Source: Candidatus Moraniibacteriota bacterium (GTDB lineage: Bacteria > Patescibacteriota > Minisyncoccia > Moranbacterales > UBA2206). Taken from it: a stretch of DNA of 64,000 bases. Location of the stretch: contig DMWY01000007.1 of the NCBI GenBank assembly GCA_003483065.1, positions 76,962 through 140,961 on the forward strand, given 5' to 3'. The position numbers were made by a program, and so were the translations under genes. This document shows, in pieces, positions 51,976 through 54,690 of this stretch. The notes below the pieces were generated by a model. The model was not told the DNA's origin, did no database searches, and was given only the letters and a program-made list of their open reading frames with translations. Numbering within the stretch: position 1 is the first letter of the stretch; every line of letters starts with the position of its first letter.

Positions 51976-53061
51976 TCAATAGAAATCACATCTTGCAACA
52001 TTCAATATCCTTTCCTTAATCTTATATCCCTCACAATGTTTCAGCACCCCCAAATACGATTGCAGACTTTGATTGAAGGATTCCTGCGAAATTATCCCAT
52101 TTTCCAAAGCATTCTTTTTGTTTTGAATTTTTTTGAGCATTCGTCTTTTGGTTTTTGTCCGTAAAATTCTGTGATATGGAAAGTTAACCATTCCTAAAAA
52201 ATCAACACCAGATGAGAAAGTTTCGATGGAAATTTTATTGGGGTGAAGTTCTAATTTCAATTCATTTTTCAGGAAATTTCTGATCAATTCAATCAAGCTT
52301 TCCAATTCTTTTTTATTCTCCGATAAAATCACAAAATCATCAGCGTAGCGGATATAGTATTTTATTTTTAGTTTGTGTTTCACAAATTGATCGAACTTAT
52401 TCATATAAACATTCACAAACAATTGCGAAGTCAAATTTCCCAATGGAAGTCCTACGCCAGAGAACTCCCTCTCCTTAATAAGGAGAGGGCTGGGGTGAGG
52501 TTGCGCTGGAGTATTAAAACTGCCAATCACATTCTCCAAAAGCCCAATAATATTTTCATCCGCAATATATTCTCGTAATATTTTTATCAAAATTTCATGA
52601 TCAATATTAGCAAAAAACTTTTTTATGTCACATTTCAAAACCCAGCAAGTTTTGGTGTTGTTTTGACTGACTTTATGGAAATACTCTTTGAATTTATCAA
52701 TAGCTCTGTGCGTGCCTTTGTTGTTTCGGCAAGAATATGAATCGTGAGTGAAAGTTTTGTCAAAAAATGGATACAATTTTCGATAAATTGCATGATGCAA
52801 AAGTCGGTCTTTGACTTTGGCTTTATGAATGTCTCTGGGCTTAGGATCATTGATCTTGAAAGCTTGATAACCGCCGTGTTTCCAAGTATGATTAGAAAGT
52901 TCGAAGTGAAGCGAGAAAATATTGTCCATCAACTGCAAAGAAAATTCCTGCAAATCTTTTCTGTTCTTTTTTCCACAAACAAATTCTTTCCAAGCTAAGA
53001 GTAAATTTTCTAAACAAATAATATCTTCAAATTTATGAGTCAATTGAATTTTTCTAATCAT
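51976..53061 (-). CDS. Diversity-generating retroelement (DGR) reverse transcriptase
   Basis: RT motifs DIKKFFANIDH (motif 2) and YIRYADDFVI (motif 5). Motif 4 GLPLGNLTSQLFVNVYM carries the DGR-specific LGxxxSQ signature. Size is 361 aa with no maturase or endonuclease domains. Confidence 0.85.
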   Translation of the reverse strand: MIRKIQLTHKFEDIICLENLLLAWKEFVCGKKNRKDLQEFSLQLMDNIFSLHFELSNHTWKHGGYQAFKINDPKPRDIHKAKVKDRLLHHAIYRKLYPFFDKTFTHDSYSCRNNKGTHRAIDKFKEYFHKVSQNNTKTCWVLKCDIKKFFANIDHEILIKILREYIADENIIGLLENVIGSFNTPAQPHPSPLLIKEREFSGVGLPLGNLTSQLFVNVYMNKFDQFVKHKLKIKYYIRYADDFVILSENKKELESLIELIRNFLKNELKLELHPNKISIETFSSGVDFLGMVNFPYHRILRTKTKRRMLKKIQNKKNALENGIISQESFNQSLQSYLGVLKHCEGYKIKERILNVARCDFY

Positions 53062-53131
53062 AATAATAATTCTACCTTTAAATCCCCCCCCCCAGCTACC
53101 AGCAGTATTTGAGAAAATAAAAAGTCTGTAT

Positions 53132-53455
53132 TTGTTATGGTATGGCTATTATCAAATTCTGCCAAAGGCTCATAGATATACATTGGGACAAAAGGTGGAT
53201 AGGATTTTTATGGAAATGATAGAAGCTGTATCTGTTGCTAGTTTTTTAAAACCAGAAGAAAAAGTACCGTATATAAAACTGGCTATCAGGAAATTAGATG
53301 TTTTGAAAATATTTCTCAATATTCTTTGGGAAACAAAATCTTTGGATGAAAATAAATACATTCAGCTTTCGGAAAAATTGAATTCCATTGGTAGAGATTT
53401 AGGAGGTTGGAGTGGAAGTATTCTGGCAAAGAAAAACTCTCCCGATAATAAATAG
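53132..53455 (+). CDS. avd: Avd-like accessory variability determinant of the DGR (opposite strand to RT)
   Basis: About 107-aa helical basic protein. C-terminal GRDLGGWSGSILAKKN resembles the bAvd C-terminus. It lies between TR and RT. The tool ORF starts at TTG; an internal ATG (MEMIEAV) is possible. Confidence 0.6.
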   Translation: MLWYGYYQILPKAHRYTLGQKVDRIFMEMIEAVSVASFLKPEEKVPYIKLAIRKLDVLKIFLNILWETKSLDENKYIQLSEKLNSIGRDLGGWSGSILAKKNSPDNK

Positions 53456-53475
53456 CGAGAGAGAAATGGAGAGAT

Positions 53476-53604
53476 TTGCGCAACCCGCGGAAGGATTGTC
53501 GGCATTCCACTGATTGTCGAGCCAATTGTAGTTCCAGTTCCACTTGCCATCATCGCTCCGGTTGAGATAAAGGATGTTGCGGTTGCCATTCGGATTGCGA
53601 AGAA
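53476..53604 (-). repeat. DGR template repeat (TR)
   Basis: 129-nt near-identical copy of 53976-54104. All 16 differences are at TR adenines (coding-strand sense). In the target frame TR encodes RNPNGNRNILYLNRSDDGKWNWNYNWLDNQWNADNPSAGCA, with Asn AAY codons at every variable position. Confidence 0.85.
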
Positions 53605-53964
53605 TTGTATAAAATATCTTCTATGCCACCACTCTTTGAATACTCTCCGAGTTGAATTTTATTCGTGATCTAAAATCACCTAATATTTTACACCAAGTAT
53701 CTTCATTTTTTTGAAGTTGCTACATACATCACACTATCCAAAACCTTGATCTTGGATATTCTGGATTATATGGATACTGGTTTCGAAAGTGAGAAGCCTT
53801 AATCGCTCACATATTTTTCTACTACCAATTTTAGTTTAGCATAAAATAAAAACCTCGCACATTTCTGTACGAGGCTCCGATTAGGCGCAATCGGAAGCGT
53901 TGGCAAAAATTTGCCGACCCAAGGACTAAGGACAAAGTATCCTAAAGTCCAAGGATCAAAGTTC

Positions 53965-54690
53965 TCAGGACTGACTTGCGCAACCCGCGGAAGGAATGTC
54001 GGCATCCCACTGAGAGCCGAGCCAACGGTAGTGCCAGTCCCACAGGCCATCATCGCTCCGGTTGAGATAAAGGATGCGGCGGCCGCCACTCGGATTGCGA
54101 AGAACCTGTCCAGGAAAATCCATGAAATTTATTTTAAAATTGCGGTGGAACCACTCGAGGATACTGTTTTCCTTGTTGGCCTGATAATCCAGCCATAAAC
54201 CAAGAAAAATATTTCCCGCAAAACGGATAAATTCCGGCTTTTCTTCTTTCAGACGGCGGAGTTTTTCCTCGCCCAAAATCGAGTTCTCTCTTTTTCTGAG
54301 ACAAGTCTCAAAAATAAAATTGGCGAGTTCAATTTCTGTGAGCGCCAGCGAGCGAGAATCGATATCTTCCTCGCCTGCAAGCCCGTCGCCATTAACCGGC
54401 CCTTTCCAAGTCGTCCAGCCCTTACCAATAAAACTGGCGGGGTCGAACAACTTAGTTAAGAGAGTTTTGGGATCGCCAACATTGAGATGGAATTTGTTTG
54501 CAATAAATGCAGCAAACATTTTCCCTCTCTGCTCCGCCGGAAGTTCAATAAAAATTTGTACATCCGCATCAATTGATTCCCACGGAGTATCCGTGAGAAG
54601 TGATGCAACTATACTGCGAGACTGACCGGCCGAAATTTTATTCTTCATAACAATTCTCCTTGTAATTTTGCGCTTGACCATATCTTGCAC
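53965..54690 (-). CDS. DGR target (variable) protein; the VR encodes its C-terminal 43 residues
   Basis: The ORF ends with the VR-encoded QVLRNPSGGRRILYLNRSDDGLWDWHYRWLGSQWDADIPSAGCASQS. No signal peptide. Confidence 0.8.
   Translation of the reverse strand: MQDMVKRKITRRIVMKNKISAGQSRSIVASLLTDTPWESIDADVQIFIELPAEQRGKMFAAFIANKFHLNVGDPKTLLTKLFDPASFIGKGWTTWKGPVNGDGLAGEEDIDSRSLALTEIELANFIFETCLRKRENSILGEEKLRRLKEEKPEFIRFAGNIFLGLWLDYQANKENSILEWFHRNFKINFMDFPGQVLRNPSGGRRILYLNRSDDGLWDWHYRWLGSQWDADIPSAGCASQS
53976..54104 (-). repeat. DGR variable repeat (VR) at the 3' end of the target gene
   Basis: Aligns base for base with TR. Substitutions occur only where TR has A: Asn codons have become S, G, R, R, L, D, H, R, G, S, D, I. 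Confidence 0.85.

Follow-up and report, generated by a model that had tools for sequence, protein, structure and literature searches.

The subject of this analysis is a diversity-generating retroelement (DGR) of a Candidatus Moraniibacteriota bacterium. It occupies positions 51976–54690 of a 64,000-nucleotide (nt) stretch of contig DMWY01000007.1 (assembly GCA_003483065.1); this stretch is called the window, and its numbering is used for all features of the locus. Read along the minus strand, the locus consists of a target gene that ends in a variable repeat (VR), a template repeat (TR), an inverted avd gene (accessory variability determinant), and a reverse transcriptase (RT) gene. We hold with good confidence that the locus is a chromosomal DGR of the Patescibacteria, or Candidate Phyla Radiation (CPR), arranged as target-VR / TR / (avd) / RT, with the TR-RNA structure modeled below and a putative switch in avd. 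An earlier first-pass annotation, made from the sequence alone, had proposed a DGR-type RT, an Avd homolog, and adenine-specific differences between TR and VR at the 3′ end of the target gene. That core reading holds.

Thousands of DGRs have been catalogued. The identity, kind, and layout of this one are already represented there in large numbers, and as a DGR the locus adds little, its layout being the CPR standard. Three features are apparently undescribed, as follows: a repeat tract near the start of avd, a TR-RNA that seems to be circularly permuted, and an array of short repeats flanking VR. Each is well supported as a pattern, and the mechanisms attached to them are inferred from sequence comparison. 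No mention of the avd repeat, the 5′ RNA domain, or the VR-flank repeats was found in the CPR DGR papers searched, Paul et al. 2017 being outside that search. From these features we propose, tentatively and at slightly less than an even chance, that the element is a hypermutator under a hypermutable switch. That is, slippage in the repeat would toggle Avd and hence retrohoming, and the TR-RNA would be a circular permutation of the RNA of the Bordetella phage DGR.

The DGR and its relatives

TR (53476–53604, minus strand) and VR (53976–54104, minus strand) align without gaps over 129 nt and differ at 16 positions. A repeat finder lists the pair as a 137-nt family. On the plus strand, every mismatch is at a T of TR, namely 8 T>C, 5 T>G, and 3 T>A. 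A T on the plus strand is an A in the minus-strand sense, so that 16 of 16 mismatches are at TR adenines. The first-pass annotation had described just such a 129-nt pair with 16 adenine-only mismatches, and realignment agrees, with zero differences at other bases. Adenines make up 35 of the 129 TR positions in the minus-strand sense, and the probability that all 16 mismatches would fall on them by chance is 3.8e-11. These 16 adenine-specific changes are the classical DGR signature. Because of them, it is certain that the DGR was active in the past.

The changes are also confined with respect to the reading frame of the minus-strand target open reading frame (ORF). All 16 are at codon positions 1 or 2, as are 34 of the 35 TR adenines, and AAC or AAT accounts for 11 of the 42 TR codons. 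Eleven codons are recoded from TR to VR, in the order N>S, N>G, N>R, K>L, N>D, N>H, N>R, D>G, N>S, N>D, and N>I. The list of varied residues first drawn up named 12 VR residues, one of which, an R, is invariant. VR encodes the C-terminal ~43 residues of the target protein. The GC-rich 3′ end of TR (CCGCGGGUUGCGCAA) is common to VR, and this shared end, CCGCGGGTTGCGCAA, resembles the initiation of mutagenic homing pair, IMH/IMH*. Beyond it the flanks differ: VR is followed 3′ by an array of 7–8-nt repeats, and TR by a linker and a hairpin.

The RT gene (51976–53061, minus strand) encodes 361 amino acids (aa) with the motifs GLPLGNLTSQ and YADD. The first-pass annotation had given this ORF and its GLPLGNLTSQ sequence, and the LGxxxSQ motif is indeed read in it. 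The protein matches RVT_1 with an E value of 1.2e-29. Among solved structures, the closest to it is 8ub7_A, a reverse transcriptase of 328 aa, at 1.4e-39, versus ~1e-16 for group II and retron RTs. We take the 328-aa chain of 8ub7 to be the RT of the Bordetella phage, bRT; the entry code was not found in the preprint on the bRT-Avd structure by cryo-electron microscopy (cryo-EM). The RT lies below every NCBIfam cut-off for the group II, retron, and DRT (defense-associated RT) families. Thus, judged by its [I/L]GxxxSQ signature and by similarity scores, rather than by a tree, the RT is of the DGR type. By the same scores it does not group with group II or retron RTs, a grouping that the first-pass annotation had named as the counter-case. 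Assignment to a group II intron, a retron, or a DRT system was considered and rejected, with the NCBIfam matches far below cut-off and the 8ub7 RT far closer.

Architecture B3, i.e., TR-(avd)-RT with avd reversed, accounts for 90% of a CPR DGR set (Wu et al. 2018, PMC5758913), and a CPR-restricted DGR ‘clade 2’ has been described (Roux et al., bioRxiv 10.1101/2020.04.01.020958). The locus in the window has this order and this reversed avd. The cassette layout had been called unusual on first reading; it is instead the CPR norm, and it is the same in the relatives. The relatives were gathered through the target protein, together with 80 metagenome loci gathered through the RT at 56–84% identity. 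The B3 layout with an adenine-specific TR/VR pair is present in ~48 related loci, and an inverted avd directly upstream of RT in 77. Where the flanks are long enough, the order is target and VR, 370–510 nt to the start of TR, ~25 nt, inverted avd, and RT. Differences between TR and VR in the relatives are almost purely at adenines.

The locus resembles the CPR DGRs of Wu et al. and Roux et al. in its chromosomal position among housekeeping genes, in a target without a recognizable domain, and in its A-to-N pattern. There is no difference in kind, and the window locus is a further member of that group.

The TR-RNA and the VR flank

The target transcript is predicted to end at an intrinsic-terminator-like hairpin with a T run (53841–53878, minus strand), which has a 13-pair stem followed by TTTTTATTTT and is preceded by a small hairpin at 53900–53917 (minus strand). 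A second such structure follows TR. In all relatives, a short linker, a GC-rich hairpin, and a U tract come directly after TR, with covariation. In the window, this terminal hairpin and U tract (53428–53463, minus strand) have an 8-base-pair (bp) GC-rich stem, CUCUCUCG...CGGGAGAG UUUUUCUUU, and overlap the final codons of avd, which is on the opposite strand. A simple terminator scan missed the hairpin on account of its 11-nt loop. Because the target terminator lies upstream and the conserved hairpin and U tract lie directly after TR, TR is most likely transcribed as a separate RNA of ~400 nt, predicted to run from ~53810 to 53428 on the minus strand and to terminate itself before avd. The alternative that the TR transcript continues, antisense to avd, as far as the RT gene is unlikely, given the conserved hairpin and U tract.

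Alignments of 47 loci define a structured 5′ domain of the TR-RNA (53607–53810, minus strand), whose elements, all on the same strand, are as follows in 5′-to-3′ order. P0 (53810–53789) is the first. The P1 hairpin (53758–53735) has an UNCG-like tetraloop; in the relatives it has a stem of 10–11 bp, and the tetraloop is YAMG in 38 of the 47 loci. Next is a primer-like strand, AAAUGAAGA (53708–53700), followed by a conserved joint, UACUUGG (53699–53693), of which the 6-nt form TACTTG is found in 27 of the 47. The 12-bp helix H3 pairs 53693–53682 with 53618–53607 and encloses two hairpins, H4 (53679–53665) and H5 (53652–53631). The 3′ strand of H3 ends 3 nt before TR. On the far side, 3 nt past TR, the strand UCUCCAUUU (53464–53472, minus strand) pairs with AAAUGAAGA and so closes TR into a loop.

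The long-range helix between AAAUGAAGA and UCUCCAUUU is 9 bp long. Eight of the nine pairs form in the window, the other being an A-C mismatch, and the complementarity has a median of 8 bp per locus. Compensatory variants include AATGAATG/CATTCATT, AAATACTTGA/TCGAGTATTT, and AAACATGG/TCATGTTT. Across the alignment the helix is 81.9% paired, and 7 of its 9 pairs have changed on both sides. A local hairpin, ACUUC/GAAG(A), was tried as an alternative to this helix and rejected, being 65.5% paired with weak covariation. For the 47 loci, RNAalifold gives 37 pairs, and compensatory changes occur in 32 of these. When the model is extended to 51 pairs, 89.4% of its cells are paired, versus 41–52% in slid controls, and the covariation score is 0.547, versus 0.11–0.16 in the slid controls; none of 500 shuffles reaches the observed values.

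Rfam gives no more than a weak match for the RNA. RT-7 (RF03028) scores 30.3 bits in the window, versus a gathering score of 116.8; neither there nor in 20 relatives does any RT-x family reach its gathering score. Membership in RT-7 or RT-16 was therefore rejected, the scores being far below gathering. There is a likeness to RT-7, in that the flanks of the 5′ hairpin, CCAGA-U...AG-GUG, and a 3′ segment, AUUcAaaGAGUGGU, align to the model, and both lie near an RT gene. RT-7 is one of the ‘RT’ motifs found near RT genes, which were speculated to be linked to DGRs, and it is assigned no function in the paper that describes it (Weinberg et al. 2017, PMC5737381).

A closer comparison is offered by the DGR of Bordetella phage BPP-1, the order of which is mtd-avd-TR-brt (Handa et al. 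2018, PMC6182149). The phage spacer RNA forms two adjacent duplexes with TR looped out between them (Handa et al. 2024, bioRxiv 10.1101/2023.10.23.563531). One duplex is formed with the 3′ end of TR, the template:primer duplex, and the other with the segment just upstream of TR, the stop duplex. The spacer begins with an Avd-binding tetraloop stem-loop, the primer strand, and the stop strand; it continues with a short stem-loop and adenosines, a single-stranded ring, and a bRT-binding stem-loop (same preprint).

The 5′ domain in the window has the same order, i.e., P1, the primer-like strand, a stop-like strand, and two stem-loops. A 5-bp stem-loop is followed by GAAUAAGAUACA and then by another stem-loop, in the manner of the phage stem-loop with its adenosines. 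As in the phage, TR is looped out between two helixes, here of 9 and 12 bp, both with covariation and with a 6-nt joint between them. The two systems also share the Avd family, the adenine mutagenesis signature, and an RT for which the 8ub7 RT is the closest.

The differences concern position and orientation. The phage spacer (Rfam RT-10) is 3′ of TR, whereas the equivalent module is 5′ of TR in the window, where only the 9-nt strand and one hairpin with its U tract lie 3′ of TR. The phage genes are all co-oriented; in the window, avd is inverted. We know of no repeat tract in the avd of the Bordetella phage. Priming of complementary DNA (cDNA) from an internal 2′-OH has been shown for the phage and is assumed for the window DGR. 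By analogy, then, we propose that the RNA of the window DGR would be a circular permutation of the phage RNA. If this is true, the 5′ spacer module would explain both the inverted avd and the separate, self-terminating TR-RNA gene. The model defines a template RNA of ~400 nt, and it predicts that the ribonucleoprotein architecture seen in the phage by cryo-EM survives circular permutation.

The VR flank differs from that of the phage as well. The phage VR is followed by IMH and a GC-rich inverted repeat, whereas the window VR is followed by direct repeats of 7–8 nt; no GC-rich inverted repeat of the phage type is present directly 3′ of VR. The array, nCTT[G/T]G[A] (53919–53962, minus strand), begins directly 3′ of VR and the target stop codon. 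The unit, nCTT(G/T)G(A), which may also be written nCTTGGn or nCTTTGn, occurs in four to eight copies after VR. In the related loci, the mean density of CTT[GAT][GA] per 100 nt is 4.06 after VR, 0.75 after TR, and 0.44 on the opposite strand, and the spacings of the repeats peak at 7–8, 15–16, 23–24, and 31–32 nt. Such an array is found after every VR and never after TR in ~45 related loci, independently of the target family. It may be a mark of the recipient site, as the inverted repeat is in the Bordetella phage. As such, it could serve as the target-site signal in this clade, where the Bordetella phage cruciform is lacking. Separately, the unit is similar to the conserved RNA joint, TACTTGG or ACUUGG (53693–53699).

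Put together on the phage analogy, the cycle would proceed as follows. RT-Avd would bind the TR-RNA, and cDNA synthesis would be primed at the duplex adjoining the 3′ end of TR. TR would be copied with misincorporation opposite adenines, and copying would stop at the upstream duplex. The cDNA would then replace VR, which would be told from TR by its own flank, the 7–8-nt repeat array.

The avd gene and its repeat tract

The avd gene (53035–53455, plus strand) encodes a protein that matches PF22296 (bAvd) at 41.5–42.9 bits, above the cut-off of 40. Against the NCBIfam equivalog NF033474, it scores 56.6 bits, below the cut-off of 80. PF22296 is matched by all 19 Avds of the clade. Searches of the PDB with the Avd sequence, both single and profile, gave no match. 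The first-pass annotation had reported a 107-aa Avd-like ORF on the opposite strand. The homology and the strand stand; the start of the 107-aa ORF is an internal TTG. Upstream of this TTG, the conserved Avd helix 1 (QLPAVFEKIKSLY...) continues to a poly-C tract, C10 (53084–53093, plus strand), and no in-frame start precedes the tract. In the RT sense, the tract is poly-G and lies 23 nt upstream of the RT ATG.

Opposite the first RT codons, on the plus strand, is an ATG at 53035. Reading from it gives MSQLNFSNHNNNSTFKSPPP up to and into the tract, in another frame, which stops after 25 codons. With C9 in place of C10, a 139-aa Avd would be read from ATG 53035, and PF22296 would be covered over profile positions 5–104, versus 18–104 as assembled. 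The DGR had first been described as complete, which calls for a qualification: as assembled, with C10, avd is out of frame with its ATG.

The avd and RT genes are divergent and overlap by ~27 nt (53035–53061), and so constrain each other’s first codons. The RT N terminus, MxxKIQLxH, has a conserved His, whose codon, CAT, reads as the avd ATG on the opposite strand. The tract is also part of the RT leader. A role of the poly-G as the Shine-Dalgarno sequence of RT was considered and rejected, since a spacing of 13–23 nt, and often more, is too long.

The tract is conserved among the 77 related loci in which an inverted avd adjoins RT. C6–C12 is found at the site in 67 of them. Five of the other ten have (GT)11–13, (GA)9–11, or (CTGG)11 in its place (L032, L046, L038, L069, and L080), so that a repeat of some kind is present in 72 of the 77. 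The unit lengths are 1, 2, and 4 nt, never 3. In repeat-free loci with an upstream start (L015, L036, L044, and L089), the upstream ATG reads straight into Avd. No other run of at least eight G or C is found in the 64-kb window or in 288 kb of related loci.

The state of the frame varies. After dereplication, avd is in frame in 22 of 65 loci and out of frame in 43, which fits one third (p = 1.0) and does not fit 0.9 (p = 1e-27). For 42 of these 43, changing a single base is enough to link an upstream ATG, GTG, or TTG to the Avd frame. The closest relative that has avd, with an Avd 96% identical, carries C9 and is in frame. Two pairs of loci isolate the change. L074 and L083 are identical over 5981 nt save one G in the tract, and L086 and L084 are identical over 2212 nt save one base in the tract. 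The members of each pair are from different samples, and each pair comprises one in-frame and one out-of-frame version.

Simple sequence repeat (SSR) contingency loci are found in Neisseria, Haemophilus, Campylobacter, and Bordetella, where they mostly affect surface structures or restriction-modification in host-associated pathogens. The avd tract is like them in that the 5′ end of an ORF contains a run of G or C, or a repeat of two or four nucleotides; in no case is the unit length divisible by three. It is also like them in that its length differs between otherwise identical sequences, or contigs, with the caveat that an assembly error could produce this difference, and in that the frames are random. 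It is unlike them in its putatively switched gene, which codes for a factor accessory to a mutagenic retroelement, and in its hosts, CPR bacteria from the environment. No DGR or avd linked with such repeats was found in the searchable literature, Paul et al. 2017 again being outside its scope.

The simplest reading is that the avd repeat would be an on/off switch of the contingency type, with transcriptional or ribosomal slippage as a variant. The output of Avd would be set by the length of a hypermutable repeat that separates the avd ATG from the Avd fold. With C10, avd would be off in the window, and C9 would restore it. The element would now be silent or leaky, and a slip of one base could switch it on. 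If avd is phase variable, DGR activity in these bacteria with tiny genomes would be stochastic and heritable rather than constitutive. This would bear on an old question, namely by what means hosts keep down the cost of carrying a targeted hypermutator.

Several points weigh against a switched element of this kind that makes a permuted TR-RNA. Most are given below with the alternatives that they favor. Two concern the RNA: both its priming site and its permutation are argued from the phage by analogy, and a promoter scan found no more sites than in shuffled sequence, the ends of the TR-RNA being predicted only.

One alternative is that Avd is made from a start past the repeat, either TTG or a non-canonical codon, or by ribosomal or transcriptional slippage. 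The repeat would then be mainly a cis element of the RT/avd control region, e.g., in the RT 5′ untranslated region, and not a genetic switch. ATG 53035 has no Shine-Dalgarno sequence ahead of it. In many relatives, translation might start at a TTG that lies 2–3 codons past the tract, and 20 of the 43 out-of-frame loci have a TTG within 3 codons of it. The Avd fold, from position 5 of the Pfam profile, begins just past the tract, and in the relatives the median distance from the tract down to the RT ATG is ~14 nt. In the window, however, the first in-frame start is 14 codons past the tract, and its use would cost half of helix 1. The repeat-free loci argue for the upstream start, as they are continuous from it into Avd, and so does the one-base change that joins the two frames in nearly all out-of-frame loci. 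Units such as those at this site, of 1, 2, or 4 nt but never 3, are what marks frame-shifting contingency loci. We regard this alternative as rather unlikely, though deserving of weight.

Another is that the DGR is decaying and inactive, the avd frameshift being a step toward a pseudogene, an insert in RT being damage, and VR being a frozen record. With avd out of frame and RT carrying the insert, the element could be in decay. The insert is in frame, ~17 aa long, and GC-rich (…PAQPHPSPLLIKEREFS…); it lies at 52455–52515, just before motif 4, and contains a perfect 23-nt palindrome (52467–52489). It is either a tolerated loop insertion or damage. The clade does decay, as two relatives that are clear DGR remnants attest. 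The closest genomic relative, from Candidatus Moranbacteria RIFOXYA12_FULL_35_19 (L001, 5948–7035), is 86% identical at the nt level. It still has most of the 5′ RNA domain along with the target, VR, flank repeats, and terminator; homology ends at the strand just before TR, and it has lost TR, avd, and RT. It is a DGR remnant with a frozen VR. L009 (4001–5500) has a target with TR and VR, differing by 23 mismatches of which 19 are at A, and mere fragments of avd and RT. In addition, a second assembly record of the window organism (L091) carries an identical VR and C10. Set against decay, the RT ORF of the window is intact, and the site of its insert varies in length elsewhere, with a different insert in L004 and little or none in L006 and L007. 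TR retains 34 of its 35 adenines at codon positions 1 or 2, and the RNA helixes are intact. The avd frameshift is exactly in a repeat kept in 72 of 77 loci, one third of them in frame, which is not the pattern of random decay. Decay of the window element is thus unlikely.

A third alternative, quite improbable in our estimate, is that the tract lengths and out-of-frame states are homopolymer errors of sequencing or assembly and that avd is an ordinary in-frame gene. Homopolymer lengths are prone to assembly error, G/C runs of 9–12 being error-prone, and the two near-identical pairs come from related metagenomes, so that their differences could be consensus artifacts. The 43 out-of-frame loci in 65 are, however, far above what occasional errors would give. 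Short tracts of C6–C8 are out of frame too, five loci have di- or tetranucleotide repeats at the site, and the second record of the organism also has C10. The tract is kept down to 56% RT identity, with no comparable G/C run in the flanks.

That the RT belongs to a group II intron, a retron, or a defense system, with the repeat pair a coincidence, is of negligible likelihood. By name, a group II intron RT/maturase is the best NCBIfam match, but its 147 bits fall far short of the cut-off of 300, and the scores for the Drt and retron models are also far too low. The 8ub7 RT leads the other solved relatives by 23 orders of magnitude, and neither an intron RNA nor a maturase/endonuclease (En) domain is present. 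In addition, the adenine-only mismatches have P ~4e-11, and Avd adjoins RT.

The target family and the genomic surroundings

The target (variable-protein) gene (53965–54648, minus strand) encodes 227 aa, with AAGGAG before its ATG at 54648. The 241-aa ORF first proposed, from GTG 54690, is probably over-extended, as all homologs begin at ATG 54648. Nor does the ORF end inside VR, as had been stated; the stop codon (53965–53967) is 9 nt past the end of the repeat. The protein has no Pfam or NCBIfam match, and a Foldseek search of the PDB gave nothing significant. For comparison, DGR variable proteins with the C-type-lectin fold include Mtd (1yu0), TvpA (2y3c), and AvpA (5ioo). No signal peptide is visible by eye at its N terminus. 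The family comprises 87 proteins of ~227 aa, all from Patescibacteria or metagenome bins. The last ~43 residues of the family are hypervariable, and the rest is a fixed scaffold. The family is an unannotated, compact scaffold for massive variation, one that is modeled with confidence. It exists outside DGRs too, because a 38%-identical homolog (L010, 4001–4711) has no DGR nearby.

Just upstream of the target gene, at 54733–54863, is an element of ~130 nt that is like a miniature inverted-repeat transposable element (MITE). It has terminal inverted repeats and two internal hairpins (GTCATTCCTGCGAAAGCAGGAATC …), and its Rfam matches are all sub-threshold (WsnRNA46, FtrB, and MIR403). As a repeated mobile element it was rejected, its hairpin being single-copy in the window. 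The palindrome in RT was rejected as a repeated mobile element for the same reason, i.e., it is single-copy in the window.

The neighbors of the DGR in the window encode ribosomal protein L25 and an SNF2 helicase. In the relatives, the cassettes lie between different housekeeping genes in different genomes. The window also has 5S and 23S ribosomal RNA (rRNA) genes (62088–64000), ~8 kb from the DGR, and in another locus (L017, 1–475) a related DGR is directly downstream of 23S-5S. The proximity of the DGRs to rRNA genes in these two cases is probably a coincidence.

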